A stretch of DNA of 64,000 nt from a virus (taxonomy: Duplodnaviria > Heunggongvirae > Uroviricota > Caudoviricetes), in IMG/VR virus record IMGVR_UViG_3300035034_003552; one strand, 5' to 3'. This document shows, piece after piece, positions 40,221 through 58,628 of this stretch. Below the pieces are notes generated by a model. It was not told the origin of the DNA. It saw only the letters and a program-made list of their open reading frames with translations, and made no database searches. Position 1 is the first letter of the stretch. Every line of letters begins with the position of its first letter. The translations under genes and the position numbers were made by a program.

Positions 40221-40249
40221 TTGACAGCATTACATTTGAGTGTTATAAT
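40221..40249 (+). promoter_or_regulatory. Consensus sigma-A/sigma-70-type promoter (TTGACA-17-TATAAT) for the replication/recombination module.
   Basis: 'ttgaca' 40221-40226, 17-nt spacer, 'tataat' 40244-40249. The ORF-track entry 40221..41093 starts at this 'ttgaca' and is an artefact. Confidence 0.7.
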
Positions 40250-40325
40250 TAAGTTGCAGTTAAGAAAGAGGTACCGGCGTTACAGTATATTAAACGCTAT
40301 AAAAAATTATAAGGAGGTAACGCTG

Positions 40326-41093
40326 ATGAAAACTACAGAAATTATGAAAGCACAACAGCCAGAAAGACTGAAAGAGGTAATTGAACAAAAGCTTAACCCT
40401 AACTGGATTAAGCAGAGAAAAGGTAGAGGCGGAATGATGTTAGATTACTTGGAAGGACACAGAGTAATCTCAATCCTAAATGACGCTACAGATTATAAGT
40501 GGAGTTTTGAGATTATTAGTAAAGAAACAATCTCCCCGAAAAAAGGTAAAGAGTTTATCGAGGTACTCGGTAAGCTAACAATACCAGGAGTCGGTGTAAA
40601 GCAGGCTTACGGTACAAAGGAACTATATGGTGACCAGAGTCAGGCAGCCAAAGCAGCTACCACTGACGCCCTTAAGAAGGCAGCCAGTATGGCAGGAGTC
40701 GGACTTGAGTTGTGGTCGGATGATGAGCCAGCAAATGATTACAATAATAACAGCAATGGCAACAGCAATTACAACAACAATGGTAATGGTGCCAGCAATG
40801 GTAACAGCAATTACAATAATAACAACAGCCAGAGCAATAGTAATAATTCTAGCAAATCAAGTAATAACGGCAGTAGTACCAAGACATGGGCTCAACCAGA
40901 AATAGTAAAAGCCGCAAACGCACTCAAGGAACACAAAAAAGCATTGGGAATTAAGAAGAACAAAGAACTTAACTCCTATGTTGATGAATGGTCAGATGGT
41001 GAACTGAGTAGTTGGAGTGATATAACACCAGCAAATATACAAGATTTCAACAAGTGGTTAGAAAACAATAAGATTCAAAAGCTGTCAGCCTAA
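40326..41093 (+). CDS. Rad52/Rad22-family (Sak-like) single-strand annealing protein with an Asn/Ser-rich low-complexity linker.
   Basis: SD 'aaggaggt'. 'KQRKGRGGMMLDYLEGHRVISILNDATDYKWSFEI...GVGVKQAYGTKELYGD...AAKAATTDALKKAASMAGVGLELW' parallels the Rad52 N-terminal core (xxGGxxxxYIEGxxVIxLAN...GYxWS...KxAxTDALKRA...FGxxLG). 'NNNSNGNSNYNNNGNGASNGNSNYNNNNSQSNSNNSSKSSNNGSS' tail. Confidence 0.75.
   Translation: MKTTEIMKAQQPERLKEVIEQKLNPNWIKQRKGRGGMMLDYLEGHRVISILNDATDYKWSFEIISKETISPKKGKEFIEVLGKLTIPGVGVKQAYGTKELYGDQSQAAKAATTDALKKAASMAGVGLELWSDDEPANDYNNNSNGNSNYNNNGNGASNGNSNYNNNNSQSNSNNSSKSSNNGSSTKTWAQPEIVKAANALKEHKKALGIKKNKELNSYVDEWSDGELSSWSDITPANIQDFNKWLENNKIQKLSA
40738..40880 (+). repeat. AAT/AGC-rich imperfect tandem repeats of about 24 nt encoding the N/S-rich segment of the Rad52-like protein.
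   Basis: 'aatggcaacagcaattacaacaac' / 'aatggtaacagcaattacaataat' near-duplicates read directly from the sequence. They generate the spurious out-of-frame ORF 40627..40905. Confidence 0.55.
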
Positions 41094-41516: not shown

Positions 41517-42200
41517 ATGGGTTCCAAAGTAGATTTAATGGTATATTTTGTTGAGAGTATGTTTGAAAGTAAACCTACTCAGGAGCAGAAAAACAATATC
41601 ATAAATACTATAAGCAACTTACTGCAAAATGGTTATTCAGATAGAGATATTAAATTGGTAATAGATAAACATATAAGGAAGTTTGGAGTAGAAAAAGATA
41701 TTACACAGGTTTTTGATGACAGGCACAAAAAGCCAACAGACGATGTCAACTTGATAGATCCTAACAAATTTTACTATCATTCGTCCCTGAGAATAGCACC
41801 AGGGCCACCTACAACGAAATACAATCCTGAAACGCGAGAGATAACTAGACGCTATGAAGACTACTTTTTAGAAATGAAAGCTAGTTATACGATAAAGGAT
41901 TTAGTTAAATATTATTGTGAGACTATGAAAATCAAAATGAATAAGCACACTATTAGTAGATACCATTCTGTATTTGAGAATTTACTTAGTTCTTACAGTT
42001 TAGACAGGATACTTTTTACGATAGATGCAGCGGCTGAAATAAGACAGTCAAACCATCTGAATCCATTGGTAAACCCATTTGGACTAACAGATTATATGCA
42101 TACAGGTGAAGAAAACTACAGTCTCAAGGTTAATTTAAGTAAACAGGAAGGTGTTGATGAAATTGTCTATCGCAAAAGACCCCCAATATTCGATGATTGA
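41517..42200 (+). CDS. Hypothetical protein in the replication module.
   Basis: SD 'ggaggag'; 227 aa. Confidence 0.6.
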   Translation: MGSKVDLMVYFVESMFESKPTQEQKNNIINTISNLLQNGYSDRDIKLVIDKHIRKFGVEKDITQVFDDRHKKPTDDVNLIDPNKFYYHSSLRIAPGPPTTKYNPETREITRRYEDYFLEMKASYTIKDLVKYYCETMKIKMNKHTISRYHSVFENLLSSYSLDRILFTIDAAAEIRQSNHLNPLVNPFGLTDYMHTGEENYSLKVNLSKQEGVDEIVYRKRPPIFDD

Positions 42201-43209
42201 GTTTGGATGTCATCTGCCAAATGGGTATTTCAAGCGAGGACAATATATAACATCTGATGACTTACTGGATATGCGCAAGAAGTACAGTAATACAGGAATT
42301 TATACTACAATTTATAGATATTCTAAAGAATTAGAAGAAGAAGACCCCATTTACGGACCATTTTATTTGGACTTCGATGCTGATATGTGGGGCGTCAGCG
42401 ATGATGTAGCAGAAAAGAACTTAAAAAAAGTACAGGAAGACTTAAAACTAGCAATAACTTATTTTGAAGTCATATACAACATACCGAGGGAATATGCCAG
42501 ATGTTACTATTCAGGTAAAAAGGGGGTACATCTGGTTTACCCTGCTGATCTATTCGGGATTAAGCCGAGGGAAGACCTTAATAGAATATTTAAGCTTATA
42601 AAAGATGATGTAAGTAAATATGTCAATCACGACACGATAGATCAAAGAATATATGATAATAAAAGATTATTCAGAGTGCCAAACTCAAGGCACCAGGATA
42701 CAGGACTTTATAAGATACCGGCCAGTCCAGATTTTTTAATAAACAGCTCACTCAAGGAGATAAGAGATAAGGCAAAGATGCCACAGGAGCTTAAAGTTAA
42801 AGAACCCAGGACATTAAGAAAGCCGGCAAAACAGTACAGAGCAGTAGTTGATAAATATGAATACCAGAAAAAAGAGCGGGAAGAAAAGATGAAAAGGTAC
42901 AAAGATAAGCCGTTAAAACACACACCTCCATGTATCGATAACCTATTAGAAGACGGAGCACGAAAGGGCCACCGCAACAATTCGATGGCTGCACTAACAA
43001 GTTTTCTCAAACAGACTGGGTTAACCGAAGAAGAGGTATTCATGAAAATAAAGAAGTGGGGCAAAGAGAAATGTGTTCCACCAATTAATGAAAACGAGAT
43101 AAAAGCGACAGTCCCTTCAGTTTATGGAAGTGAAAAGAACTACGGATGTGCAGCACTAAAGGAACTATCGACTTGTGAAAAGGATAAATGCAAGCTGGTA
43201 AAAGATTAA
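42157..43209 (+). CDS. Archaeo-eukaryotic-primase-type primase-polymerase (PrimPol) with a C-terminal PriCT-1 domain.
   Basis: AEP motifs 'FYLDFD' (DxD), 'GKKGVHLVYP' (sGxGxH), 'RLFRVPNSRHQDTG'. The C-terminal 'GARKGHRNNSMAALTSFLKQTGLTEEEVF' fits PriCT-1 (GxRNxxLxxxA). ATG 42157 after 'aggaaggtg'. Confidence 0.7.
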   Translation: MKLSIAKDPQYSMIEFGCHLPNGYFKRGQYITSDDLLDMRKKYSNTGIYTTIYRYSKELEEEDPIYGPFYLDFDADMWGVSDDVAEKNLKKVQEDLKLAITYFEVIYNIPREYARCYYSGKKGVHLVYPADLFGIKPREDLNRIFKLIKDDVSKYVNHDTIDQRIYDNKRLFRVPNSRHQDTGLYKIPASPDFLINSSLKEIRDKAKMPQELKVKEPRTLRKPAKQYRAVVDKYEYQKKEREEKMKRYKDKPLKHTPPCIDNLLEDGARKGHRNNSMAALTSFLKQTGLTEEEVFMKIKKWGKEKCVPPINENEIKATVPSVYGSEKNYGCAALKELSTCEKDKCKLVKD

Positions 43210-44276: not shown

Positions 44277-45389
44277 ATGGAAAATGAACAATCCACAGCA
44301 AATGCTCCAGAACGACATCCACTTGCTGATGATGAACAATTAGCTCCACCACCTGTTGTTGAGGCTAATGATGAAGATTTAGATAATAATTTACCACCAA
44401 TACAGTCAGTTCCACAAGATCAACTTGATGGAATGCCGGATTATATGAAAAATACTTCAATGCTTATCGAGGAGTTTGATAGATATTGTAAAGAAAATCC
44501 TGATGGTGGTTATGTTACAGGATATCAACAGTTAGATGATGCATTAATCGGATTCCAGCCTGGACTACATTTTGTTGCTGGTATGAGTAATGCAGGTAAA
44601 TCCTCTTTTCTACTAAATTTAGCATGGAGTGTCGGACAATCAAACGATAACGCCTATGCTTTATATATAACTTTAGATGATGGAACAAATGACTTACTAC
44701 CAAGAATAGTTGCTATGGAACAGCAAGTACCTATTAATACTGCAAGGTATCCTGGCCGGTATTCAGAGTTTGATAACTTAATGGATGCTCGCGAGGAAGG
44801 TGTGAGAATTCTCTATGATAATGTAGATAAATTTGGAATGATTAATAAAGATTACGGTTGGAACGCCGAGGAGCTTGAGGACTTAGTAAAAGAATTAAGA
44901 ATGCAATTAGCCGCAAGTGGGTCCGGTCGTGACTTATGTATCTTCATTGATAACTTTCACGACCTCTCCTCTGAAAAAATTAGTATTGGTACTGACCAGA
45001 ATGCACGATTCGAACAAGCTGGTGGTGCACTAAAAAACATTTCAGAAACCTATGATGTGCCTATTATAGCAACAGCTGAGTACAAAAAACTCGAAGGTAA
45101 ATCAAGGCCAGTTATCTCAGATATTAAACAGACTGGTAAAACAATCTATCAGGCCAAAACAGTTATGCTATGCTATAACGAAGTTGGAGTTAAAGATGAA
45201 ATGGCCAAGGTCTTTTTTGGTAGAGAGGAACGTGAAAGAAAGAGTCCAATCTTTGAAGTACACATAGCAAAAAATAAAAGTTCAGACATGAAATCCCGTC
45301 TCTTCTATGAGTTTTATGAAGAAATGGCCAGATTTGAAGAAGTACCAAGTCACAGATCTGGATACTACCTAAATATGCTAGGAGGTTGA
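44277..45389 (+). CDS. DnaB-C-terminal-family (RecA-fold) replicative helicase-like ATPase.
   Basis: SD 'aggagg'. 'TGYQQLDDALIGFQPGLHFVAGMSNAGKSSFLLNLA' (Walker A in DnaB-like context), 'LCIFIDNFHDL' (H2-like). Confidence 0.7.
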   Translation: MENEQSTANAPERHPLADDEQLAPPPVVEANDEDLDNNLPPIQSVPQDQLDGMPDYMKNTSMLIEEFDRYCKENPDGGYVTGYQQLDDALIGFQPGLHFVAGMSNAGKSSFLLNLAWSVGQSNDNAYALYITLDDGTNDLLPRIVAMEQQVPINTARYPGRYSEFDNLMDAREEGVRILYDNVDKFGMINKDYGWNAEELEDLVKELRMQLAASGSGRDLCIFIDNFHDLSSEKISIGTDQNARFEQAGGALKNISETYDVPIIATAEYKKLEGKSRPVISDIKQTGKTIYQAKTVMLCYNEVGVKDEMAKVFFGREERERKSPIFEVHIAKNKSSDMKSRLFYEFYEEMARFEEVPSHRSGYYLNMLGG

Positions 45390-47803: not shown

Positions 47804-47832
47804 AGAGGGGGTTCTCCCCTCTTCTCTTTATT
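47804..47832 (+). terminator. Intrinsic terminator.
   Basis: 'agagggggttctcccctct' hairpin followed by 'tctctttatt'. Confidence 0.6.
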
Positions 47833-47847
47833 AAGGGAGTGTTATCG

Positions 47848-48276
47848 GTGGAAAACTTATTAGGATTATATTACCCGCTGCAGGGAGATACATTCGTATT
47901 CGGTAAGGCTAGATTTTATTCTATGTCAAGTTTAAAACAGAAGGGAAATAGCTTAAACAGCGAAAGTTTTAAGGATACATTTTTTGATTTCTTTGAGAAA
48001 GAAACTAGTTTAGGCAATGATCCATTTATCTTAATTAGAAACGATATAATAAATACAGAGTTTGTACTTGAACTGTTATTTGTAACTGAAGCAGTGAAAA
48101 AAAGTCACGACTCTTATGTCATTAAGGGTGAAATTGAACCACCTAAGATATCTTCTAATAAAGATATAGTCTATTTCGATATGAAAGCAGATGAAAAAAA
48201 CTTTTATAACTTTTTAAAGAACATACCAGAAAAATGTCTGGGAGCAAAGGTAGATCTGAAGGGTGGTAAAGATTGA
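47848..48276 (+). CDS. Hypothetical protein; GTG start.
   Basis: ORF 47839..48276. GTG 47848 is better spaced from 'aaggga' than GTG 47839. Confidence 0.45.
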   Translation: MENLLGLYYPLQGDTFVFGKARFYSMSSLKQKGNSLNSESFKDTFFDFFEKETSLGNDPFILIRNDIINTEFVLELLFVTEAVKKSHDSYVIKGEIEPPKISSNKDIVYFDMKADEKNFYNFLKNIPEKCLGAKVDLKGGKD

Positions 48277-48640
48277 ATTAATAAGCGAGTATCTTATTAA
48301 AGTACAGGCCAATAGCAAACTGGATAATAGGGCAGGATTTCTAGTACACGGTAAGCTGTATCCATTCAACCATTTGGAGGAAGTAGTTCATGAAAGTCAT
48401 CCACATAATAACGGCTATATGACTACGGTATCACTTACATTAGTAAGACCAAGAGATCGTAATATACACTCAATAGATATAACAGTAGAGTTTAATTTAA
48501 CCGAGGAGATAGCTGATAAACTAAGGTCTGTTATAGAACTTAAATTTAAAGACGAATATAGCAATGAAGAGCTTAAAGATTGTGGAACTATAGTTTTAGA
48601 TGACTACATAATAAGAATAGATCAAAATATCAACTTATAA
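48263..48640 (+). CDS. Hypothetical protein; member of an 'ELIxEYL' N-terminal-motif group.
   Basis: GTG start overlapping the upstream stop; 'MVKIELISEYLIKV'. Confidence 0.5.
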   Translation: MVKIELISEYLIKVQANSKLDNRAGFLVHGKLYPFNHLEEVVHESHPHNNGYMTTVSLTLVRPRDRNIHSIDITVEFNLTEEIADKLRSVIELKFKDEYSNEELKDCGTIVLDDYIIRIDQNINL

Positions 48641-48654
48641 AGGAGAATAATTTC

Positions 48655-49416
48655 ATGGAACTTATACAGGAATACTTAAATATTTTTGAAGATTATTATG
48701 ACGAACTGGAAGTAGAAAAAGATGTTGGCTTTACCGTCCAGGGCGAGCTTTTTGAAATAACAAGCCTTGTTGATGTAGAAAGAAGTCCTCGTACGAATGG
48801 TTTTTATTACACAATGGAGGATTTTCATCACGCCCATGAGTCAAGTCCAAGGGCTGGATTTACATCTAAATACCAATTAACATTTAATTCTCAGGATTAT
48901 AATACAAGAATTTATCTTGCTATAGGAGAAGATGAATATTCAATGGAGGTATTGCAGGTAATACAGGAGTATATAAGAACAGGTGAAGTAATGATTAATA
49001 AAACTATAGAGATTGGGCGCCTTGTTGAGCGCGTAGAAAGAGTTCCATCAATTAATACGTATACGACTCCCGAAGTCCAGTCACATACTCATGTATTTAT
49101 GGGAGATCATGTAGATTCTGACGGCTCTACTCCTGTATCCGAACATTCAGAGGTAGAACCACACCCTATAGAAACTTTTGAAGTCAGTATGAGAATTGGA
49201 ATTGATACAGATGAAGATGGTGACTGGATGACTGAATTCCAGGAGATGCCTCTTACTGAAGATACTTTAACCGAAATTGCTCACAATCTTACTCAAGAAG
49301 TAGAAAGAGAATTCAGTGGAGTTATGAATGGTGGTAATGCGGCTGGTTCCATAAAAGAATCAGTAGAAAACAGCATGCAGAGGCTTATATCAAGCTTTAT
49401 CTCTGGAGATGAGTAA
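48655..49416 (+). CDS. Hypothetical acidic protein; 'ELIQEYL' N-terminus.
   Basis: SD 'aaaggag'; 253 aa. Confidence 0.6.
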   Translation: MELIQEYLNIFEDYYDELEVEKDVGFTVQGELFEITSLVDVERSPRTNGFYYTMEDFHHAHESSPRAGFTSKYQLTFNSQDYNTRIYLAIGEDEYSMEVLQVIQEYIRTGEVMINKTIEIGRLVERVERVPSINTYTTPEVQSHTHVFMGDHVDSDGSTPVSEHSEVEPHPIETFEVSMRIGIDTDEDGDWMTEFQEMPLTEDTLTEIAHNLTQEVEREFSGVMNGGNAAGSIKESVENSMQRLISSFISGDE

Positions 49417-49903
49417 GATGGATCTTATAAAAGAATACTTAAAAGTTAACCAGGAAAAAATAGATTATGGTATCTGGATTAAACATATATTCATACCTTA
49501 CAGAAAAATGAATATTAAAAAAGTCCAAAAGACATATATTAGACACCAGCGATCAGAGTATGACGGACTTAGCGCTTATTCTGTTAGAGGCTATTCAGAA
49601 GACATAGGCATTAGATTAGAGTTAGAAGCTACAAAAAATTCACATGAAAGAATAAACATGACATTAGAACTCGGTATAGATAAGGCTTTTGTTCTACTAA
49701 AAGAGTCTGGTAAGAACAACGAGATGAGAGAACTATTTGAAAAAGCATATAAAGATGTATTAGAAAACGAAGAAATCGAAACCAGAATGGATCTACAGAT
49801 AGTAAGGGAAGAAATAAAAGATCTATCACCTTACTACTCATATCACTTACAATTTTCTACAGAATACAACACAGAAACAAATGGTTACGATTACGTATTT
49901 TAA
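49409..49903 (+). CDS. Hypothetical protein; 'DLIKEYL' N-terminus.
   Basis: SD 'ggagatgag'; 164 aa. Confidence 0.55.
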   Translation: MSKMDLIKEYLKVNQEKIDYGIWIKHIFIPYRKMNIKKVQKTYIRHQRSEYDGLSAYSVRGYSEDIGIRLELEATKNSHERINMTLELGIDKAFVLLKESGKNNEMRELFEKAYKDVLENEEIETRMDLQIVREEIKDLSPYYSYHLQFSTEYNTETNGYDYVF

Positions 49904-49921
49904 TAAAAGGAGATTACTTAA

Positions 49922-50683
49922 ATGGAGTTTACCATAGAAGAGCTTAAAGTTTTTGGACAATGCCCACTTAAATATAAATACGGTTATATGAATGACTACA
50001 AATACAGAAAATCCAGAGAACAAGAATATGCAGACTCCATTAGGTCAGTCTCAACATGGTTTTTCGATAATGTAAGAACCGGCAGTATCCCCACCAAAAG
50101 AGAAATAAGAAAAAAGTGGGGGAGTATCTGGCATAAAGGCAAAGATGTTTACGATATCTTATTTGATACTTCTTATAAATATGAAAGGCGCCGCAATATA
50201 AAGGGAGTTGAAAAGATTGATAAATTTTACGATAGATTCACCAAAACACCGGGAACCATCTTAATAAATAATTACCCCTTCGATGTTCCAATAGGTAACG
50301 GCCACATATTAAAAGGTAGATTCGACATAATAAGAGAAGTAGAAAAAAACAATTCTACAAGAATTGAACTACTGAATTTAAGGACAGATAAATATGTTCC
50401 TTACAGTAGATTAAGGGAAAGGGATTTACTGCTTACTATACATGACTATGCATATAGGAAGACATTTGAACAGATCCCGGACCAACTAGCTTATTATGCC
50501 TTTAAGAATGATACAAGGGCCGTTATAGACCCTATGAGGCCGAAGCATTTTAAGAAGTTAGAGACTATGGTCAACAACATTGCATCTATTATAGATCAAG
50601 GTCTCTTCTTTCCTCGCTTCGATGAAGAACATAAAATATGCAGACACTGTGATTATACAACTGTCTGTGCGGGACGGAGGTGA
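49922..50683 (+). CDS. Cas4-like / RecB-family PD-(D/E)XK nuclease with a cysteine (Fe-S) cluster.
   Basis: SD 'aaaggag'. N-terminal 'ELKVFGQCPLKYKYGYM' (Cas4-type 'CPRK(F/Y)' box), 'GRFDIIREVEK' (D...ExK), C-terminal 'CRHCDYTTVCAG'. Confidence 0.65.
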   Translation: MEFTIEELKVFGQCPLKYKYGYMNDYKYRKSREQEYADSIRSVSTWFFDNVRTGSIPTKREIRKKWGSIWHKGKDVYDILFDTSYKYERRRNIKGVEKIDKFYDRFTKTPGTILINNYPFDVPIGNGHILKGRFDIIREVEKNNSTRIELLNLRTDKYVPYSRLRERDLLLTIHDYAYRKTFEQIPDQLAYYAFKNDTRAVIDPMRPKHFKKLETMVNNIASIIDQGLFFPRFDEEHKICRHCDYTTVCAGRR

Positions 50684-50687
50684 AAAT

Positions 50688-50867
50688 ATGCTTGATATCA
50701 AAAACGGTGAAGGGAAAACAGTACTGACACTCAATGATGAAGGGGAACAAGAATCTATCGATGAAGAGTATTTTAATAAAATTAATGAAGAAAATGAAAC
50801 TAACTACAGAGTAAAAGAAAATGGTGAAATTGTAAATATCGAAGAAGAAGAAAACGACAACAACTAA
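50688..50867 (+). CDS. Small, highly acidic protein (59 aa).
   Basis: SD 'ggaggtg' + 5 nt + ATG 50688. The ORF-track entry 50622..50867 probably starts too early. Confidence 0.45.
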   Translation: MLDIKNGEGKTVLTLNDEGEQESIDEEYFNKINEENETNYRVKENGEIVNIEEEENDNN

Positions 50868-50883
50868 AAAGGAGATGAACTAA

Positions 50884-51381
50884 TTGATCATACTAGGAAT
50901 TGACCCATCTACAGTCGCAACAGGGTATTCAGTAATGGAAGCAGACGAAAACGCCTTAGTTCTCTCTCCTACCGTTGTTGAATATGGCAGCATAAACACA
51001 AAGAGAAAGAATCGAATTTCAGATAGAATAACAAAGATTTATGATGAACTTGAAGTATTAATCAATAAATATGAACCAGACATCATAGTATCAGAAGATC
51101 AGTACGGTGGCCATACCAACGCTGTAAAAGCTCTTAGCCAGGTCCGAGGTGCAATAATGATTCTATCATCCAAACATGAACTACCTCTCTTCCTCTTAGC
51201 TCCAAGCCGTGTTAAGAAAGTAGTAACCGGTAAAGGCAACTGCAATAAACAAAAAGTTATTGAGGGCATAAGTGAAAGGTTTGTAATAGATGAAGATGAC
51301 CTTACAAGTGATATGGCAGATGCTATAGGAATAGCCTATACATTTCTAACATTCGAAGAAAACGACCTTAGAACAGCATAA
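50884..51381 (+). CDS. RuvC-family Holliday junction resolvase.
   Basis: SD 'aaaggag'. 'MIILGIDPSTVATGYSVME' is the classic RuvC N-terminal motif; 165 aa; TTG start. Confidence 0.75.
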   Translation: MIILGIDPSTVATGYSVMEADENALVLSPTVVEYGSINTKRKNRISDRITKIYDELEVLINKYEPDIIVSEDQYGGHTNAVKALSQVRGAIMILSSKHELPLFLLAPSRVKKVVTGKGNCNKQKVIEGISERFVIDEDDLTSDMADAIGIAYTFLTFEENDLRTA

Positions 51382-51417
51382 ATACCAAACGTTACAGCCA
51401 AGGAGGCACACACCGAA

Positions 51418-52212
51418 GTGATGGATACAGAAGAACAATTAACAGCAGATGAAGTAGAAGAACTAGTCAAAGATTACAAAGACCCAGAAAGCGATACTGA
51501 AGCCGCAAAGAAATTACTCAATGCATTTTACCCATATCATCAAAAGTTTATTAAGATAATCAAAAGAAGTACCTGCAATATTTCCGATGAAGACAGCAGA
51601 GAATTTATAGGATTATTTATAGAAGATAAAGAAACTAAAGATCAGTTCATAAAAAACTGGAACACTGGCTGGGCTAAGAAAGTAGGGACCAGCCGGGCCT
51701 CTTTTCTGACAGAGCTGTGTAAAAACATCTCATACGAGGAAATAAGCCAGGAATGCAAGCTAATAACTTTAAAGCTGGCAGACAGGTATGAAGATTTAAA
51801 CAGAAGTTTTTTAGCTTATATCAGCTCTTCTTTTAAATATGAGCTCAAAAGAAGCCTTGATGAATTGACTCAGGATCCACTTGTTATGATGCAAAACTAC
51901 AATATCCCTTATGATTATCACGAGATAGACAGCATGGAGGGTAGTAGTTACATAGTCAATGAGAACATGCAGTATGATGAAAATGCATTCACAATGAAAT
52001 ACGAGGAACTGGGTCCAGACTGGATAAGAGGGATCACCTGTTCAAGAGAATTTAAAGATTTAGACTTGGTAGAAAGAAAGATTATCAAGTACTACTATCT
52101 CGACGATCTTACCGATGAAGCAATCGGAAATGAAATAGGTTATTCAAGACAGTGGGCACATGAAATGAGACAGAGAACGATAAAAAAACTTAAAGAAAAA
52201 ATAGTAATGTAA
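51418..52212 (+). CDS. Phage-encoded sigma-70-family sigma factor.
   Basis: SD 'aaggagg'. C-terminal region-4 HTH 'RKIIKYYYLDDLTDEAIGNEIGYSRQWAHEMRQRTIKKLKEKI'. Confidence 0.65.
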   Translation: MMDTEEQLTADEVEELVKDYKDPESDTEAAKKLLNAFYPYHQKFIKIIKRSTCNISDEDSREFIGLFIEDKETKDQFIKNWNTGWAKKVGTSRASFLTELCKNISYEEISQECKLITLKLADRYEDLNRSFLAYISSSFKYELKRSLDELTQDPLVMMQNYNIPYDYHEIDSMEGSSYIVNENMQYDENAFTMKYEELGPDWIRGITCSREFKDLDLVERKIIKYYYLDDLTDEAIGNEIGYSRQWAHEMRQRTIKKLKEKIVM

Positions 52213-52234
52213 TACGAAAATGTTAATATAGACC

Positions 52235-52264
52235 TTGACAAGTGTAATACATATATGTTATACT
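52235..52264 (+). promoter_or_regulatory. Sigma-A-type promoter (TTGACA-18-TATACT) upstream of the second Cas4-like gene.
   Basis: 'ttgaca' 52235-52240; 'tatact' 52259-52264. Confidence 0.55.
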
Positions 52265-52294
52265 ATAAACAACAGATGGAAGGAGGGCTTGTAA

Positions 52295-53005
52295 ATGGCA
52301 ACAGAACTCATAAAAGAATATATAGAAACTACTGATGGTGGATATGGTAAAGGTTACAGCTTAAAAGATCTTGTCAATTCACACCTTAGACAAAAACAAG
52401 TATTTTCAGAAAGAGATATGACAAAATTTCACCCCTCCTCCGTTGGTTATTGCGCAAGGAAAGTGGCAGCTGACATGATTGGTACATTTCCTAAAGAATT
52501 TATTGAGGACAGGATACTAAGAATATTCCAAAACGGCCACTATTCTCATGATAGAATACAGGATTGGCTTGAAGAAATGGGATTAATGGTTGAAGCAGAA
52601 AGAAAACTTATAGATGAAAGCTTAAACATAAGAGGTAACTGCGATGGTGTTATAGAGTTATATGATGAAGGTGAATTTATCATCGAAATCAAAACTATAA
52701 GTGCCAAAGGCTACAGGTACACTAAAAAGCCCAAGGACAAACACTACGCACAGATACAGCTTTACATGCATCTATCAGAGGTCCATAAAGGTATCCTCTT
52801 CTATGAATGCAAGGATGACCAGCGAATCAAAGAATTTAAGGTCGATTATGACCCAGAATTTGCACAGGAACTTATAGAAAAGATTAAGTTTATAAATAGT
52901 CATGTAGAGGAAGGTACTCTACCAGATAAACAATACGAGAAAAACAGCTTTGACTGCCGCTATTGTGAGTACAGAGAAACAATATGCTGGGCAGACGAAG
53001 ATTAA
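52295..53005 (+). CDS. Second Cas4-like PD-(D/E)XK nuclease with a Cys cluster.
   Basis: SD 'ggaaggaggg'. 'HPSSVGYCARKVA' (N-terminal Cys box), 'GNCDGVIELYDEGEFIIEIKT' (D...ExK), C-terminal 'CRYCEYRETICW'. Confidence 0.65.
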   Translation: MATELIKEYIETTDGGYGKGYSLKDLVNSHLRQKQVFSERDMTKFHPSSVGYCARKVAADMIGTFPKEFIEDRILRIFQNGHYSHDRIQDWLEEMGLMVEAERKLIDESLNIRGNCDGVIELYDEGEFIIEIKTISAKGYRYTKKPKDKHYAQIQLYMHLSEVHKGILFYECKDDQRIKEFKVDYDPEFAQELIEKIKFINSHVEEGTLPDKQYEKNSFDCRYCEYRETICWADED

Positions 53006-53370
53006 TTTAGTTAACCAAACTCCTTAAAATAAACCTCTAGAAATTGGTGACACAAAAGATTGATCAACTATTTAGCTTGTCAAATGTATATGTCACCTCT
53101 AAAAACTTGACCGGGTCCATAAAAGTGACTCCCTGTCGACAAGCACAGAGTCAGCCTGGTTTTTTGCCGAGAAGTTAATAAGACCCTTTAAAATCGAGGG
53201 CACTGTTCAGAGAACTATGAGGTTTCTAATCGGCTTAGTTTTTCCATGATAACAGGTGCGGATGTTCAACAGCCATTCGCACCACTCCTTAAATATAATA
53301 ATTTTCCTTTCTTCCGTCCCTGAAATATGGGGCGGTAATTTTATCCCAAAAATACACGAAAAGAGGTAAG

Positions 53371-53604
53371 ATGATGGCAAATAACAAAGATCAAACGTCT
53401 CTCAAGCTTATAGGTATGGCCACTAATATGTTTTCAGCAAATAAAGATGAAATAGAGGCATTTCTTTCAGCTTGGGATGAACATTTACATATATTTGAAG
53501 ATACAAAATCAGATAGAGGTAGAACTTTAAGTGACTTAATAGAAGATCTTAAAGAATATGCTGATGAAAAGTACAGTATAAGTTCTGTTATTAAAGAAGA
53601 GTAA
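53371..53604 (+). CDS. Hypothetical small protein.
   Basis: SD 'aagaggtaag'; 77 aa. Confidence 0.5.
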   Translation: MMANNKDQTSLKLIGMATNMFSANKDEIEAFLSAWDEHLHIFEDTKSDRGRTLSDLIEDLKEYADEKYSISSVIKEE

Positions 53605-53619
53605 AAAGGCGGTAGATAA

Positions 53620-53895
53620 ATGAATGTTAGACTCACGGTAAAAACAATATTCTCAGTATTAATAGCATACATGGTAGATATCTTCAATGAAGTCTATCCT
53701 ATTATAGGTAATTACATAGTTGGAGGACAGCTTGAGTCGTCAGATTTCAATTATTTACTTTTACAGTATTATAAAGAAGTGGATACTCTCTTCTATGCTC
53801 TTATAATTATGCTTTTAATCATGGTATGGTATCGAGAAATCAAGTATTTACATGACAACTATTGGGTGGCTGAAAAAGAAACAGCTACTGAATAA
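53620..53895 (+). CDS. Small two-TM membrane protein immediately upstream of the SPFH gene (possible NfeD-like partner).
   Basis: 'IFSVLIAYMVDIF' and 'LFYALIIMLLIMVWY' hydrophobic helices; 91 aa. Confidence 0.5.
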   Translation: MNVRLTVKTIFSVLIAYMVDIFNEVYPIIGNYIVGGQLESSDFNYLLLQYYKEVDTLFYALIIMLLIMVWYREIKYLHDNYWVAEKETATE

Positions 53896-53929
53896 CAAAT
53901 AATATATACAAAAGGGGTTGCATAAGTTA

Positions 53930-54973
53930 ATGAAGAAAAAGATTTTATTACTATCGATCATTTTATTAGTCGTACTATTCGCTACAACAGGTTGTGTCAT
54001 CAAGGAATACAAGGAACCATTGATTGTTGAGGGTGGCTCTAATGAAACACTTATTCTAATTCCAATGGTGGGGAACAATAAGGACACTCAGGAGAAATTA
54101 GATTCTCTTTCCTATCTTGAGGAAAACAAAGTAGCTTCAAAAAGAGTTGAATTAACTCAAGGCTGGCTTAAGAAAGGACGCCTACCTAACTCTGGGACAT
54201 ATATCCCCGACCAAAAAGCTATTAGAGTAGATAGAACTCCAGTAAACTTGGAGTGGACTGCAGAGAAAAATAGAGGCAGTAGCTCAAGCGATCAGGGTAT
54301 CGTCGGAGAAAGTAAGAACTCAATCAGTTTTGCGGTTGACTGGTATGTAACAGCAACAGTACTTGAAGAAAACGCACATGAATTCCTATATTGGTACGGT
54401 GTTAATAATGAAACTGCCAGAACAAAAGGCGGCAGAACCTACAGTGTAAAATCAAGACAGCTACATGATGTTGTTAATACTGAAGTAAGAAGGATGGTTG
54501 CCAAGCTCTTTACTGAAAAAACAGGACGGCTATCACTCGATGAAATAATGTCTGGTAAAGATAGGCTATCACAGGAAATTGAAAGCGAAGTTAAAGAACA
54601 TTTCGAGAAAAAAGGTATCACCATCACCGCTTCTGGATGGACTGGTGACATCACATATTTTGATGATGCAGTACAGGAATCAATTAACCAAGAATTTAAG
54701 GCTGACAGAAAGGCAAAGGCACAGGCTAAGGTAAATCAAATGAACTTAGATATGGCCAAAAACGAGGTTGAAGTGGCCAAGCAAGAAAGACTAGCCGCCG
54801 AGGAAAGACAGAAAGCCTGGGACATCATCGCACAGCGCAGAGAATTAGATATCTTAGAAAATTATGTAGATGTTCTTAATGAAAAATGGGATGGTAAGTA
54901 TCCTTCTACTCTCTTAAAGAATGGTGGAGGTTCTAATCAACCATTTATGATGGAACTACCAATGCCCGAATAA
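53930..54973 (+). CDS. SPFH/band-7 (stomatin/prohibitin/flotillin-like) lipoprotein.
   Basis: 'MKKKILLLSIILLVVLFATTGC' is a signal peptide with a lipobox-like TTGC. The mid-region 'RRMVAKLFTEKTGRLSLDEIMSGKDRLSQEIESEVKEHFEKKGITITASGWTGDITYFDDAVQESI', followed by the Ala/Glu/Lys coiled coil 'KAKAQAKVNQMNLDMAKNEVEVAKQERLAAEERQKA', is typical of SPFH domains. TTG at 53918 is an alternative start. Confidence 0.6.
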   Translation: MKKKILLLSIILLVVLFATTGCVIKEYKEPLIVEGGSNETLILIPMVGNNKDTQEKLDSLSYLEENKVASKRVELTQGWLKKGRLPNSGTYIPDQKAIRVDRTPVNLEWTAEKNRGSSSSDQGIVGESKNSISFAVDWYVTATVLEENAHEFLYWYGVNNETARTKGGRTYSVKSRQLHDVVNTEVRRMVAKLFTEKTGRLSLDEIMSGKDRLSQEIESEVKEHFEKKGITITASGWTGDITYFDDAVQESINQEFKADRKAKAQAKVNQMNLDMAKNEVEVAKQERLAAEERQKAWDIIAQRRELDILENYVDVLNEKWDGKYPSTLLKNGGGSNQPFMMELPMPE

Positions 54974-54986
54974 ATAGGAGGAATAT

Positions 54987-55244
54987 ATGGACTTTTCTAA
55001 AGCACTAAGTAAAGTGAAAGAAGGAAAGAAAATCGCAAGAAAAGGCTGGAACGGTAATGGTATGTATATTTATTTTGTCTCTGAAGATAGTTATGAGTCA
55101 AAAACTAAACATGCGAAGAAAGAATTTGGTGATGTAACACCTTATCTGCCATACCTTGCCCTAAAAACTGTTAATGACAAAGTAGTCCCATGGACCGTGA
55201 GTCAGACGGATATCTTATCTGATGATTGGACCGTGTTAGAATAA
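54987..55244 (+). CDS. DUF2829-like small protein (family of the Thoeris anti-defence protein Tad2).
   Basis: SD 'aggagg'. 'ALSKVKEGKKIARKGWNGNGMYIYF' and 'VVPWTVSQTDILSDDWTVLE' match the DUF2829 hallmarks (A(L/I)xxGKK(V/I)xRKGWNGKGM...W.PSQ.D(L/I)LA.DWE) from memory; 85 aa. Confidence 0.5.
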   Translation: MDFSKALSKVKEGKKIARKGWNGNGMYIYFVSEDSYESKTKHAKKEFGDVTPYLPYLALKTVNDKVVPWTVSQTDILSDDWTVLE

Positions 55245-56237: not shown

Positions 56238-58628
56238 ATGCCAATAAACTATATAACTAAAAGAGATAAAGAGATAGTAGAATTTGACAGAGAAAAAATA
56301 GAGATTGCAGTAAATAATGCAGCCGTAGATGGTAATTTCGAGGAGAATCCCTTAGAACTGGGTATAAAGGTCGCAGATATAGTAGTACGAAAACTGCTTC
56401 CTGCTTATGAGGACAATACCAAAAACGATACTCCAACTGTGGAGCTTGTTCAAGATCTTATTGAGGAAACATTGATGGAACTAGGAAACTTCAAGATTGC
56501 TAAAAAGTATATTATATATAGAAGTAAAAGAGAAAGTGTTAGAATCAAGAAAAATAAAGAAGATGATAAAAACTCTATCCTTTCAAATGAATTCCTGAGC
56601 AAGTATAAACACCAGCCTAACCCTTTCCCAACAGAGCTGGGGGAATTTATTTATTATAGAACCTATTCGCGATGGTTGGAAGTAGAACAGCGCCGCGAGT
56701 ATTGGTGGGAAACAGTTAAAAGAGCTGTAGAATACAACTGCTCACTTGCACCAACAACTGAAGAAGAAGCTGAGGAATTATATGATAATGTATATAACTT
56801 AAGAAACTTTGTTGCCGGTCGTACATTATGGACAGCGAGTACAGAATCATCTAAAAAATACGGAATGAGTAACTACAATTGTTCCTTTACAGTTATAGAT
56901 AGCTTTAAGGCATACCAGGACATTTTCTACTTGCTTATGATAGGCAGCGGAACTGGATTTCGCGTTCTTCCTCGTGATGTTGATCATCTGCCTAAGATCA
57001 GAACTAATGTGGAAATTATTCATAAATATTATGACCCTATTGAGAAGGACGAGAGGCGTGAATATACCGACTTCGACTTTGATGGTAGAGTTGCTACTAT
57101 TAATGTTGGAGACTCAAAAGAGGGCTGGATTCAATCCCTAGAGTATTACTTTAAGTTCTTAACCGAACATTCTTATAGACCAGTAAGTAAAATCATCTTT
57201 AATTATGACTCCGTACGCCCGAAAGGCGAGAAACTTAAGACATTTGGTGGTACAGCTTCTGGCCATGGAAGTCTAAAGCGTATGTTTACTAAGGTTGATA
57301 AACTATTACACAGCAAAAGCGATAGAGATACAGACGATCTGGATAGAGTTAAGCTAAAGCCTATTGACGCAATGGATATTTCAAACATTATTGCTGAAAA
57401 TGTAGTTAGTGGTGGAGTAAGACGCTCCTCTCAAATTTGCCTCTTTTCTGCTGATGATAAAGAGATTGCCCAGGCTAAAAGCAAGTTATATGAGCAGGTA
57501 AATGGAGAATGGGTAATAGATGAAGAAATAGCACACCGTCAAATGAGTAATAACAGTATCTTTTACGAAGAAAAGCCAACCAGAGAACAACTTAAATGGC
57601 ATGTTGAGCAAATGCGTTTTAGCGGAGAACCGGGATTCATTAATGCAGAAGAAGGAAGGCGCCGCAGGGAAGATTTTAAAGGTGTAAATCCCTGTGCTGA
57701 GATTCTGTTAGATTCTAAGGGTGTATGTAACTTAACCTCCCTTAATGTAATGAGCTTTGTAGAAGACGGTGAGCTTGATAGAGAAGCCATGATGAACTCA
57801 CAAAGATTATCTGCTAGAGCCGGTTATAGGATGGCCACAATAGAGTTTGAACTGCCAGAATGGGGTTACATCAATGACAGAGATAGACTAATTGGGCTAT
57901 CAGTTACTGGGTGGCAGGATATGGTGAATGCTGCTGACTTAGATAAAGATGAAGAAGCACAACTATTAAGACAGCTAAAAAATGCTGGCCAGGATGCTGC
58001 AGAAGAAATAGCGGCAGAATTAGATGGTAACGAACCTAAGCTAGTCACTACCGTTAAGCCAGAAGGCACTCAGACACAAATGCCTACGGTATCAAGCGGA
58101 CTCCATTATAACCATAGTGCATATTATTTAAGAAGAGTTAGAATTTCTGCTTCTGATCCGCTGGCCCGGGTGTGTGAAGAATTGGATTATCCAGTACACC
58201 CTGAAACCGGTCAGGATCCTGACAATCCAGAAACACTAGTCATAGAATTCCCAGTACGCGCTCCAGAAGGCAAAGTCAAGGATGACGTTGGAGCCCTAGA
58301 ACAGTTAGAAACCTACAAGATGTTTATGAAAAACTATGTTGATCATAATGCTTCGATCACTGTTCATGTCAAGGATGACGAATGGGAAGATGTAGAAGAA
58401 TGGTTATGGGAAAACTGGGAATATACAGTTGGTATCTCCTTTCTTTCTTATAATGACAGCTTCTATGAACTAATGCCTTATGAGGAAATTACCGAAGAAG
58501 AATACTTAGATAGAGCAGAAAAAATGAAAGAGTTTAAGCCCGGTCTAGTTGCTAAGTATGAAACTGAACAGCTTGAGAGAGAGGTTGAGGGTAGTTCCTG
58601 TGAGACTGGAGCCTGTCCGATCAGATAA
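56238..58628 (+). CDS. nrdJ: Ribonucleotide reductase, class II (adenosylcobalamin-dependent, NrdJ-type), with an N-terminal ATP-cone-like region.
   Basis: SD 'aagggag'. N-terminal 'ITKRDKEIVEFDREKIEIAVNNAAVDG' (ATP-cone-like), 'NPCAEILLDSKGVCNLTSLNV' (class II active-site Cys/Asn motif NPCxEIxL...CNLxSxN), C-terminal 'SSCETGACPI' redox Cys pair; 796 aa. Confidence 0.8.
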   Translation: MPINYITKRDKEIVEFDREKIEIAVNNAAVDGNFEENPLELGIKVADIVVRKLLPAYEDNTKNDTPTVELVQDLIEETLMELGNFKIAKKYIIYRSKRESVRIKKNKEDDKNSILSNEFLSKYKHQPNPFPTELGEFIYYRTYSRWLEVEQRREYWWETVKRAVEYNCSLAPTTEEEAEELYDNVYNLRNFVAGRTLWTASTESSKKYGMSNYNCSFTVIDSFKAYQDIFYLLMIGSGTGFRVLPRDVDHLPKIRTNVEIIHKYYDPIEKDERREYTDFDFDGRVATINVGDSKEGWIQSLEYYFKFLTEHSYRPVSKIIFNYDSVRPKGEKLKTFGGTASGHGSLKRMFTKVDKLLHSKSDRDTDDLDRVKLKPIDAMDISNIIAENVVSGGVRRSSQICLFSADDKEIAQAKSKLYEQVNGEWVIDEEIAHRQMSNNSIFYEEKPTREQLKWHVEQMRFSGEPGFINAEEGRRRREDFKGVNPCAEILLDSKGVCNLTSLNVMSFVEDGELDREAMMNSQRLSARAGYRMATIEFELPEWGYINDRDRLIGLSVTGWQDMVNAADLDKDEEAQLLRQLKNAGQDAAEEIAAELDGNEPKLVTTVKPEGTQTQMPTVSSGLHYNHSAYYLRRVRISASDPLARVCEELDYPVHPETGQDPDNPETLVIEFPVRAPEGKVKDDVGALEQLETYKMFMKNYVDHNASITVHVKDDEWEDVEEWLWENWEYTVGISFLSYNDSFYELMPYEEITEEEYLDRAEKMKEFKPGLVAKYETEQLEREVEGSSCETGACPIR

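Follow-up and report, generated by a model that had tools for sequence, protein, structure and literature searches.

What an uncultured large phage does with two small Cas4-like Fe-S proteins, encoded on either side of a RuvC resolvase and a sigma factor, is the question raised by positions 49,922 to 53,005 of a 64,000-nucleotide stretch of DNA (IMG/VR record IMGVR_UViG_3300035034_003552; hereafter the window) from a relative of Bacillus phage 0305phi8-36. A sequence-only reading took the two proteins, here named A (253 aa) and B (236 aa), for paralogous nucleases with a D...ExK core, and proposed that one could be a recombination exonuclease partnering the Rad52-like protein and the other an anti-CRISPR-adaptation or anti-defence factor. 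Here we report an analysis of both proteins, their relatives and their genomic context. The reading that we favour, and hold to be probable by a modest measure, is that B is a working exonuclease for Rad52-type annealing and A is a core Fe-S protein that needs no canonical catalysis.

Gene content and conservation of the locus

The coordinates of both ORFs were confirmed, as was their position around the RuvC and sigma-factor genes. These four genes and those for the Rad52-type single-strand annealing protein (SSAP), primase and DnaB lie in a single + strand block, with the following features:

40221..41093, + strand: Rad52/Rad22-family SSAP (PF04098, E 9.2e-12, 45.6 bits vs 20.3; phrog_3290, SSAP)
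42151..43209, + strand: archaeo-eukaryotic-type primase, the start of the syntenic replication block (phrog_16345, E 4e-56; PF04104, PriCT_1)
44277..45389, + strand: DnaB-like replicative helicase (PF03796, E 2.6e-20; phrog_243, E 2.4e-31)
49922..50683, + strand: protein A (standalone, 253 aa), with an Fe-S PD-(D/E)XK fold; its 0305phi8-36 orthologue is gp190 'RecB'
50688..50867, + strand: small, very acidic ORF of about 59 aa between A and RuvC
50884..51381, + strand: RuvC-type Holliday junction resolvase, 165 aa (PF02075, E 1.3e-24; phrog_159, E 2.3e-33)
51418..52212, + strand: phage sigma-70-family factor, 264 aa (Sigma70_r4, phrog_351, TIGR02937)
52235..52264, + strand: candidate sigma-A-type promoter (TTGACA, 18 nt, TG-TATACT), within the 82 nt that precede B
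52295..53005, + strand: protein B, 236 aa, predicted Cas4-family Fe-S exonuclease with a complete motif set
53314..53335, + strand: hairpin resembling a terminator, after B (stem of 7 pairs, 6 being G-C, then a T-rich tail; a consensus match only)

All four expected RuvC residues (D7, E71, D143, D146) were found. The sigma factor matches Sigma70_r4 with E 8e-5 and 22.5 bits, slightly below the Pfam cut-off of 24.1, phrog_351 with E 1.6e-8, and TIGR02937 with E 6e-8, under the cut-off of that model. The acidic ORF is called as 59 aa on contigs encoding an identical A protein and has a 54-aa counterpart in the equivalent slot of relatives; Pfam and PHROG searches gave zero matches for it. The site upstream of B agrees with the consensus at 11 of 12 positions, carries an extended -10 TG, and recurs in two of the compared sequences (L005 and L006) as TTGACA-17-TGnTATAAT, so that B is apparently served by a conserved candidate promoter of its own, of the host type.

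The gene order primase-DnaB-...-A-RuvC-sigma-B was found again both in metagenomic contigs and in cultured phages of the 0305phi8-36 type. Searches by tblastn with A identified orthologues in 0305phi8-36, WH1, Edson, KLEB27-3 and MTATph1 (Bacillus phages, E 3e-18 to 2e-20 with 98-100% coverage; MTATph1, E 4e-7), among them 0305phi8-36 gp190, WH1 gp040, KLEB27-3 gp076 and MTATph1 CDS0069, which share 22-24% identity with A over the full length and occupy the same syntenic slot. The top structural matches of A in BFVD have TM scores of 0.86-0.87; judging by their lengths, these are presumably gp190 and gp040. Other family members (21-33% identity), on contigs reaching 120-174 kb, likewise lie downstream of primase/DnaB and upstream of RuvC. 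Both its full-length similarity and its location, after the DnaB block and before RuvC, place A in the orthologous group of gp190 'RecB', and recB is one of the four non-structural genes common to 0305phi8-36 and BtI1 (PMC2147016). This, together with the conserved position of A across divergent phages, indicates that A is a core gene.

Genes for both proteins, in the same order, are present in KLEB27-3, WH1, Edson, Moorella phage MTATph1 and several metagenomic contigs; the pair is therefore typical of the lineage and not the oddity for which it had been taken. The orientation of B is inverted in KLEB27-3 and WH1, and in MTATph1 B adjoins a DNA polymerase gene.

Protein B and its relation to Cas4 and annealing proteins

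Both proteins pass the gathering score of PF12705 (22 bits), A with 35.7 bits (E 1.1e-8, full length) and B with 33.5 bits (E 5.6e-8), in agreement with the proposed Cas4/AddB/RecB-like Fe-S PD-(D/E)XK fold class. Judged by its motifs, B is a member of this class: it has C53, H85, D117, E131-I-K133, Q153...Y157, C221, C224 and C231, the last three forming a C221-x2-C224-x6-C231 cluster, and all ten catalytic and Fe-S residues are retained in 7/7 genomes. In a profile comparison with the Sulfolobus Cas4 protein SSO0001 (4ic1; E 2.9e-10) the motifs are in register, D117 and E131-I-K133 aligning with the GRADAI and IEIKT motifs of SSO0001 and completing the catalytic triad. B strongly matches PHROGs of Cas4-like and RecE-like phage exonucleases, namely phrog_1706 (E 6e-40), phrog_1990 (E 2.6e-32) and the RecE-like phrog_434 (E 8e-18).

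B thus shares with CRISPR Cas4 (SSO0001, 4ic1; type I-C, 8d3l) all motifs in register, the Fe-S ligands and the size class, but it differs in the C-x2-C-x6-C spacing, some 45 additional N-terminal residues, the lack of cas1/cas2 neighbours, and scores below the Cas4 models. In the TIGR00372 equivalog model (cut-off 65 bits) B scores 42.2 and A 24.5, and in PF01930 (cut-off 22.7 bits) 20.4 and 16.1, so that neither protein passes either model and A is further from CRISPR Cas4 than B. No cas genes were found in the annotation of the 36.6-58.6 kb region, whose genes encode phage structural, replication and recombination proteins, RNR and Tad2. These results, and the deep conservation of A in the replication module, speak against the anti-CRISPR-adaptation or anti-defence role suggested for one of the two proteins.

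They bear in particular on the idea that B is a hijacked Cas4 that alters host CRISPR spacer acquisition or counters defence, instead of a recombination enzyme. Cas4 hijacking has been proposed for Campylobacter phages (cited in PMC5704561), the best named matches of B are Cas4 models, its predicted host-type promoter would be in keeping with such a function, and its absence from 0305phi8-36 and inversion in KLEB27-3 and WH1 make it more accessory-like than A. We nevertheless consider this improbable, as B fails to reach the cut-off of either PF01930 or the Cas4 equivalog model and also matches a RecE-like recombination exonuclease PHROG, its neighbours are RuvC and sigma or, in MTATph1, a DNA polymerase gene, an SSAP is encoded alongside in the window, in KLEB27-3 and in L013, and cas genes or arrays were not found nearby, within the annotated 36.6-58.6 kb.

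A recombination exonuclease partnering the Rad52-like protein, as proposed by the sequence-only reading, is reasonable for B and not for A, which lacks the catalytic Glu and Lys. Like lambda Exo/Red-beta, RecE/RecT and the pairs of a Cas4-type exonuclease with an SSAP, the phage combines in one genome an exonuclease candidate with intact motifs (B), an SSAP of the Rad52 family (Rad52_Rad22, PF04098) and a resolvase. Unlike in the classic pairs, the B gene follows the Rad52 gene at a distance of 11 kb, in an apparently separate transcription unit with its own promoter-like site, and the partnership is one that we infer. In the favoured reading, B would resect DNA ends, presumably 5' to 3', to leave 3' single strands, the Rad52-type protein would anneal these strands, and RuvC would resolve the branched intermediates ahead of packaging. 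B is not a universal SSAP partner in this lineage, since no B homologue was detected in 0305phi8-36, which has A and an SSAP of the Mgm101/Rad52 type. Proteins such as B are routine, Cas4-like exonucleases being annotated in hundreds of phage genomes.

Fold, iron staple and catalytic motifs of protein A

The structure of A was predicted by AF2 with high scores (pLDDT 94.4, pTM 0.90). The best Foldseek match of the model is AdnA (6ppr_A; E 4e-9, TM 0.69), followed by ACE1 (9iab), AddB, Dna2, Cas4 and Exo5 (E range 4e-9 to 1e-5); in this model A is a restriction-endonuclease-like fold with an iron-staple decoration. Residues were compared in a sample of 129 standalone relatives of A, with 22 longer relatives as positive control. 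The motif positions of A are as follows:

49961..49963, + strand: C14, N-terminal Fe-S ligand (Cys in 122/122 relatives having a residue there)
50324..50326, + strand: D135, acidic residue of motif II, kept (D/E in 110/129 relatives; aligns with B D117)
50375..50383, + strand: N152-L153-R154 in the slot of the canonical (D/E)xK motif III (by hhalign, N152 aligns with B E131 and R154 with B K133)
50435..50449, + strand: T172...Y176 in the slot of the QxxxY motif IV (by hhalign, T172 aligns with B Q153 and Y176 with B Y157)
50639..50668, + strand: C240-x2-C243-x5-C249, C-terminal Fe-S ligands (Cys in 127/127 relatives having a residue there)

The noted pattern of an N-terminal Cys and a C-terminal C-x2-C-x5/6-C is borne out in A (C14/C240/C243/C249) and in B (C53/C221/C224/C231), and the ligands are conserved in the relatives of both. 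By its sequence the four-Cys iron staple of A is intact, and cluster binding is predicted. Among the 253 positions of A, the cysteines hold conservation ranks 1, 3, 4 and 5 (the C-terminal ones 3, 4 and 5), and the motif III positions ranks 164 and 118.

The placement of N152-L-R154 and T172 was obtained from three independent alignments: the 129-sequence family, a profile alignment with the sequences of the solved AdnAB and ACE1 structures, and an hhalign comparison of the A and B families. In the first, local segments are in register; in the second, the family profile 'ivDFKT' aligns with IVDFKT of 9iab and VVDLKT of 6ppu. The D...ExK core read in both proteins therefore holds for B (D117, E131-x-K133) and fails for A, where D135 is kept and motif III is N-L-R. 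Properly aligned, A lacks catalytic residues, the outcome that the sequence-only reading had itself named as speaking against it, and B has them all. With a non-canonical motif III, A is a member of the superfamily by fold and homology, and not demonstrably a nuclease. Motif IV is Q153...Y157 in B and T172...Y176 in A. Thr occupies position 172 in 92 of the 129 relatives, and Thr or Ser is also common there in the canonical longer relatives, so that Gln does not define the sub-branch of A.

The canonical triad [DE]...[DE]xK is present in 31/129 standalone relatives, and D...DxK is kept in all 22 longer ones. By these alignments the (D/E)xK motif is lost in about three quarters of the phage relatives of A, and the Fe-S cysteines are kept. 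Canonical and non-canonical states switched at least 14 times independently on an NJ tree of the family, and in genomes carrying both proteins A is non-canonical in 6/7. Motif III reads EFI in 0305phi8-36, DFR in WH1 and DIK in KLEB27-3, is missing in MTATph1, and is NLR in the window. At position 138 the phage family has Arg, where the longer relatives have Asp.

These data suggest that, as a canonical metal-dependent nuclease, A most likely has no activity or only a strongly reduced one. Residual or non-canonical catalysis is conceivable, as D135 is kept, Asn is able to ligate Mg2+ and Arg is still positive; relocated catalytic residues are known in some PD-(D/E)XK enzymes. In that case two Fe-S nucleases could be at work in the phage, each on its own substrates, for instance an exonuclease and a flap or ssDNA endonuclease, with A using D135 and N152/R154 or other residues. 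The retained D135 lies cross-strand from N152 in a predicted hairpin, with the register taken from the DSSP string, residue 154 is Lys or Arg in 72/129 relatives (56%), and the nearest relative (65% identity) has an identical D-N-R; the fully canonical quarter of the family further implies that the ancestral function was nucleolytic. Against an active A, motif III is conserved no better than average, motif II has a Pro in 14 of the 129 standalone relatives, and the non-canonical members showed no conserved acidic or Lys residue of their own that could compensate: D168 also occurs in 12/22 canonical enzymes, and an alternative nearby [DE]xK in just 6/98 non-canonical members. In ACE1, moreover, mutation of both Asp of D-DxK abolished activity (PMC12094033). 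Taken together, an active A is rather doubtful, and we retain the reading of A as a protein that needs no canonical catalysis.

Relatives and possible roles of protein A

By BLASTP the similarity of A and B is limited to the Cys region (E 0.04), and their kinship is seen only by profile-profile comparison (hhalign). A clusters with the nuclease domains of AdnA, AddB, ACE1 and UvrD fusions, and B with Cas4 proper. The two are thus distant relatives, not recent paralogs, and would be separately inherited Fe-S PD-(D/E)XK members of a conserved replication-recombination module.

A shares the four-Cys iron staple and the motif order with AdnA (6ppr), AddB (4cej, 3u4q) and the UvrD-fusion branch of PF12705, and the sampled cellular relatives closest to it in sequence are mostly UvrD-helicase-PDDEXK_1 fusions; among seven longer relatives scanned, six were UvrD-nuclease fusions or fragments thereof and one was a nuclease-GAF-GGDEF protein. 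In contrast to these fusions, A is a standalone protein of 253 aa with no helicase, and has N-L-R where 22/22 longer relatives have D-x-K. The Argonaute-associated Cas4-family protein ACE1 (9iab, 9iac; PMC12094033) is, like A, a standalone Fe4S4 PD-(D/E)XK protein, of about 270 aa, and is the top PDB sequence-profile match of the A family (Foldseek E 3.5e-8, TM about 0.62-0.64 with A). However, ACE1 is a proven ssDNA endonuclease with an intact D-DxK, a pAgo partner and a role in host defence, whereas A lacks DxK and is encoded in a phage replication module.

In AddB/AdnA, the Fe4S4 domain has been linked to recognizing DNA ends and wedging the strands apart (PMC12094033). These domains bind and split broken ends; by analogy, A may bind DNA ends or single strands in an Fe-S-dependent manner, as part of the replication/recombination machinery. 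The same property could serve anti-defence, with A either binding phage ends as a dead protein and so keeping host AddAB/RecBCD away from them, or drawing off host nucleases as a decoy: A is a pseudo-nuclease whose iron staple is intact, and a gene for a Tad2-like anti-Thoeris protein is found 4 kb downstream. This has a low probability in our view, given that A holds a fixed place in the primase-DnaB-RuvC module of very divergent phages, whereas anti-defence genes are usually patchy, and that the matches in PADLOC are only weak Cas4 ones. In addition, gp190 is not among the mass-spectrometry virion proteins marked in the 0305phi8-36 record, which makes end protection at injection unlikely.

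Another use for an inactive A would be as the dead subunit of an obligate A-B heterodimer that processes DNA ends, like RecC-RecB or AddB-AddA. The proteins occur together in 10 of the 13 genomes or contigs with enough sequence, and live/dead pairing has precedents among PD-(D/E)XK proteins. Yet 0305phi8-36 has A without B, genes of the B type occur in 216 phage records and those of the A type in only 6, the catalytic state of A is uncorrelated with the presence of B, and the two genes are apparently in different transcription units, which leaves such a complex highly improbable.

RecC has a dead nuclease-like domain. Together with the nucleocapsid protein of TTV1, it shows by precedent that a protein of the Cas4/RecB fold can lose catalysis yet still serve in DNA binding or as a structural component. 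The TTV1 protein is an inactivated Cas4 derivative (cited in PMC5704561). The A family differs from both in that none of the four Cys varies, one syntenic orthologous gene alternates between presumed active and inactive forms, and the gene is still part of the replication module. We tentatively suggest, as a rather speculative extension, that the gp190/A family comprises widespread, unremarked phage 'pseudo-nucleases' in which the Fe-S cluster is selected and activity was lost many times independently, perhaps acting as a wedge that binds DNA ends or forks by means of its cluster, as a loader that cooperates with the phage DnaB helicase or RuvC, or as a redox-sensitive switch in recombination-dependent replication.

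The useful result of this analysis concerns A. A survey of the Cas4 family concluded that catalytic motifs are retained in the Cas4 proteins that it aligned (PMC5704561). Across the A family, all four Cys persist without exception and (D/E)xK drifts freely, so that the role of the iron staple would be separated from catalysis. Automatic annotation names the family 'RecB', 'Cas4' or 'PD-(D/E)XK phosphodiesterase', and the published annotations of A orthologues, as RecB or PD-(D/E)XK phosphodiesterase, leave the degeneracy unmentioned; in phage surveys, A-type genes should not be counted as nucleases or as CRISPR-related. The family, with cultured members in KLEB27-3 (E-D-K), WH1 (E-D-R) and 0305phi8-36 (D-E-I), provides a naturally occurring set of presumably active and inactive orthologues suited to testing the function of the Fe-S domain alone.

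Gene layout and family assignments of the two Fe-S proteins

Within the 49.9-53.0 kb region, five open reading frames (ORFs) were called on the plus strand, and these calls place two nuclease-fold ORFs, designated A and B, before a ruvC gene and after a sigma-factor gene, respectively, in agreement with the sequence-only reading of this locus.

Genes of the region (coordinates, strand, product)
49922-50683, +, protein A, standalone Fe-S PD-(D/E)XK-fold protein, 253 aa
50688-50867, +, small acidic ORF, ~59 aa
50884-51381, +, RuvC, 165 aa (PF02075, E 1.3e-24)
51418-52212, +, sigma-70-like protein, 264 aa (region 4 and phrog_351)
52295-53005, +, protein B, Cas4-family Fe-S nuclease, 236 aa

RuvC is unambiguously identified, with residues D7, E71, D143, and D146 all in place, and the sigma region 4 match (E 8e-5) scores 22.5 bits, below the cut-off of 24.1. 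Both A (35.7 bits) and B (33.5 bits) exceed the curated Pfam cut-off of 22 bits for PDDEXK_1. The cysteine patterns claimed for both proteins were borne out, comprising C14 and C240-x2-C243-x5-C249 in A, and C53 and C221-x2-C224-x6-C231 in B. Judged by curated profile cut-offs, neither protein qualifies as a CRISPR Cas4, since both fall below the 65-bit cut-off of TIGR00372 (24.5 bits for A and 42.2 for B) and below that of PF01930. Protein B is a further member of the well-known group of phage Cas4-like exonucleases, and A falls into an orthologous group that had been annotated before as 'RecB' (gp190).

The small ORF between A and RuvC encodes an extremely acidic product rich in E, D, and N; its longest reading starts from 50622 and overlaps the 3' end of A. 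No family match was found for this ORF, and an ORF of 54-59 aa fills the same slot in relatives, including ORF191 of Bacillus phage 0305phi8-36. Its composition recalls DNA-mimic proteins, a resemblance that we mention as speculation.

Catalytic motifs and Fe-S ligands of the A family

The main new result of this analysis is catalytic decay combined with invariant Fe-S ligands in the A family. The motif set of B is complete (H85, D117, E131-I-K133, and Q153...Y157), and the profile of B with its orthologues matches the Sulfolobus Cas4 protein SSO0001 (4ic1; E 2.9e-10) with the motifs GRxDA, IEIKT, QLQxY, and CxYCxxxxxC in register. In A, three independent alignments agree that the motif III position holds N152-L-R154 rather than (D/E)xK. 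A 129-sequence alignment of the A family leaves no doubt about the register of the local pattern h-E-h-h-x-[FY]-x-T, and the family profile 'ivDFKT' aligned with IVDFKTGK of ACE1 (9iab) and VVDLKTGK of 6ppu. An hhalign comparison of the A and B families (probability 90.6%, E 1.3e-6) paired D135 with D117, N152 with E131, R154 with K133, T172 with Q153, and Y176 with Y157, and superposed the Cys clusters. The D...ExK core proposed for both proteins therefore stands for B and fails for A, whose aligned N-L-R motif is the outcome named beforehand as counting against it.

The fold of A was confidently modelled. With 111 relatives from an exhaustive search, AlphaFold2 reached pLDDT 94.4 and pTM 0.90, up from pLDDT 48.5 with an alignment of only 4 sequences, whose model was not usable. 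The best Foldseek match of this model in the PDB was the AdnA nuclease domain (6ppr_A; E 4e-9, TM 0.69), with further matches to ACE1 (9iab/9iac), AddB, Dna2, type I-C Cas4, Exo5, and RecE. Among PDB sequences, phmmer and a small profile of A found nothing meaningful; it took the 111-sequence profile to reach ACE1, Cas4, and AdnAB. In the DSSP string of the model, strands 128-142 and 145-154 form a hairpin, whose apparent register (i + j = 287) would put D135 opposite N152, as in canonical PD-(D/E)XK geometry, and would pair R138 with E149 on the opposite side of the sheet. Relocation of catalysis in A to E149 or D168 was rejected because both residues are also conserved in canonical longer relatives and because E149, from the hairpin register, is predicted to point away from the D135 side of the sheet.

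The exhaustive search retrieved 299 relatives of A at E <= 1e-3; among the 150 matches listed, 128 are standalone proteins (<=330 aa), which together with A make up the 129-sequence alignment. The four Fe-S cysteines are invariant across this alignment, and the canonical [DE]135...[DE]152-x-K154 set occurs in only 31 of the 129 sequences. At position 152, D is found in 49 sequences and N in 15, with the remainder scattered; at position 154, 42 sequences have K and 30 have R. Pro replaces the motif II Asp in 14 standalone members. Ranked by column entropy among 253 positions, the cysteines are 1, 3, 4, and 5, and positions 152 and 154 are 164 and 118. On a neighbour-joining tree, Fitch parsimony requires at least 14 switches between canonical and non-canonical states, compared with 26 ± 1.5 for shuffled labels. 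As a positive control, all 22 longer relatives (376-1062 aa) among the 150 matches listed have D-D-K, which supports the alignment; seven of them were scanned, of which six are UvrD-helicase-PDDEXK_1 fusions or fragments thereof and one is a nuclease-GAF-GGDEF protein. No compensating residue was seen in the non-canonical members, and another [DE]xK lies nearby in only 6 of 98.

Seven genomes or contigs carry both genes, and in each of them B has retained its full set of ten catalytic and Fe-S residues, including the four cysteines. The A triad is non-canonical in six of these seven (D-N-R twice, E-G-R, E-D-R twice, and D-L-V), the exception being phage KLEB27-3 (E-D-K), on which no literature was found. 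The catalytic state of A showed no correlation with whether B is present. Catalytic degeneracy of the A family was not mentioned in the literature found, including a Cas4 survey, in which the catalytic motifs are conserved across aligned Cas4 proteins and the only inactivated derivative cited is the TTV1 nucleocapsid protein (PMC5704561).

Synteny, transcription signals, and likely roles of A and B

Megablast of positions 49000-54000 against 50,697 phage records gave no nucleotide match, pointing to an uncultured phage, and relatives of this region were detected at the protein level only. A word-indexed search yielded just 2-4 homologues for A and 3 for B, so that an exhaustive search of representatives was needed; the single-protein search with A found no IMG/VR relative. 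Orthologues of A were present in only six phage records, namely 0305phi8-36 (gp190 'RecB'; two records), vB_BceM_WH1, Edson, vB_BauM_KLEB27-3, and Moorella phage MTATph1. The best matches of B are in the same phages, minus 0305phi8-36. A tblastn search of the latter with the KLEB27-3 B orthologue detected no B-type gene, and its ORF200, a candidate by position, was ruled out (19% identity, no motifs); B is thus frequent in the lineage and not universal.

Replication and recombination genes upstream of A in the window
40221-41093, Rad52-family single-strand annealing protein (SSAP)
42151-43209, archaeo-eukaryotic-type primase
44277-45389, DnaB

The order (Rad52)-primase-DnaB-(PhoH)-...-A-...-RuvC-sigma-...-B is repeated in the phage genomes with A orthologues, and a metagenomic contig with a 65% identical A has exactly A-small ORF-RuvC-sigma-B-SPFH-Tad2. 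Even A-family members with only 21-33% identity lie after primase/DnaB and before RuvC, on contigs reaching 120-174 kb, and the SSAP type differs across these loci (Rad52, ERF, or, in 0305phi8-36, Mgm101). The recB gene is one of four non-structural genes common to 0305phi8-36 and BtI1 (PMC2147016). The two genes had been regarded as an unusual pair of paralogs; the pair is instead typical of this lineage, and A and B are not recent paralogues, BLASTP between them matching the C-terminal Cys region only (E 0.04). On a metagenomic contig (L015 774-3998), a DnaG-primase/DnaB-helicase fusion gene is followed, from the very next base, by an A-family gene whose triad is fully degenerate (D-M-S), an arrangement consistent with A-family proteins being functionally tied to the replicative helicase.

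The 82-nt gap before B, immediately 3' of the phage's own sigma gene, contains a near-consensus promoter-like site of the sigma-A type with an extended -10 (52235-52264, +; TTGACA-18-TG-TATACT, 11/12 matches). The site is perfect (TTGACA-17-TGnTATAAT) in two relatives with 65-76% protein identity. In the region, terminator-like sites exceed expectation (12 found, 3.1 expected), and promoter-like sites overall do not (19 found, 25.6 expected).

Terminator-like hairpins on either side of the genes
47804-47822, terminator-like hairpin
53314-53335, terminator-like hairpin

From these signals, B would form a transcription unit of its own under a host-type promoter, with A-RuvC-sigma belonging to an upstream unit.

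In the best-supported reading, B is probably the working nuclease of the pair, a Cas4-family Fe-S exonuclease, given its intact motifs, its hits to phage exonuclease PHROGs of the RecE-like and Cas4-like types, and its genomic company. It would produce 3' single strands for annealing by the Rad52-type protein, and RuvC would afterwards resolve branched replication and recombination intermediates of the large linear genome. The suggestion of a recombination exonuclease partnering the Rad52-like protein is thus plausible for B and not for A. An anti-CRISPR-adaptation or anti-defence function, also proposed, found no positive support: no cas genes were found near A or B, and the deep syntenic conservation of A argues against it for A; for B, we regard it as a minor alternative.

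Protein A is best read as a core replication-module protein in which selection acts on the iron staple rather than on canonical catalysis. The Asp at motif II (D135) is retained, Arg154 keeps the positive charge, and Asn, as at position 152, is able to ligate metal, so A may have residual or non-canonical catalysis. In AddB and AdnA, the Fe-S domain is implicated in recognising broken ends and in separating strands; ACE1 passes single-stranded DNA through a channel to its D-DxK site, where mutating both Asp abolishes activity (PMC12094033). Based on these analogies, A would bind DNA ends or single strands and would be inactive or strongly attenuated as a nuclease.

Neighbouring genes and motifs

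Several other features were observed in the window and its relatives. Between primase and DnaB, a XerC/XerD-like tyrosine recombinase (43206-44096, -; TIGR02224, E 2e-70, below the equivalog cut-off) is the lone minus-strand gene in an otherwise plus-strand block, as it is in L005, the metagenomic contig closest to the window. Unexpected in a large lytic-looking phage, it could reflect a temperate or episomal lifestyle or dimer resolution.

A six-frame translation of all 64 kb contains exactly four copies of the peptide motif [ED][LIV]I[KQS]EY[LIV] ('ELIKEYL'), compared with zero in 30 shuffles. The sites (48275, 48658, 49421, and 52304, all +) each lie within 12 residues of an ORF start, in a run of three unannotated ORFs immediately preceding A (48263-48640, 48655-49416, and 49409-49903) and in B. 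The motif was not found in the upstream ORFs of relatives and is only partly kept in the closest orthologues of B as 'MATELIKxYLE'; one possibility is an N-terminal docking helix common to these proteins, another a paralogous module at the N-terminus.

The slot after RuvC, which holds the sigma-70-like gene in the window, KLEB27-3, WH1, and metagenomic relatives, is occupied in 0305phi8-36 by ORF193 (L003 13485-14348), a 'hypothetical protein' with no Pfam match. The 2007 genome paper based an argument on 0305phi8-36 having no recognised sigma factors (PMC2147016), and ORF193 may be a very divergent sigma factor.

Downstream of B, an SPFH/Band-7 protein with a lipoprotein-like N-terminus (53918-54973, +; PF01145, E 1.9e-10, phrog_200) is conserved in the closest relative. 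It is followed, as in L005, by a clear Tad2-like (anti-Thoeris) protein of 85 aa (54987-55244, +; PF11195, E 4.9e-26), the only recognisable anti-defence gene near the A/B region. Downstream of the module lies an ATP-cone-containing ribonucleotide reductase of class II (B12-dependent; 56238-58628, +), whose homologue on contig L012 (10370-14854) has 1494 aa with intein and LAGLIDADG domains. After ~58.7 kb, GC and AT skew change sign and ORFs turn to the minus strand, which suggests a divergent-arm genome layout like that described for 0305phi8-36.
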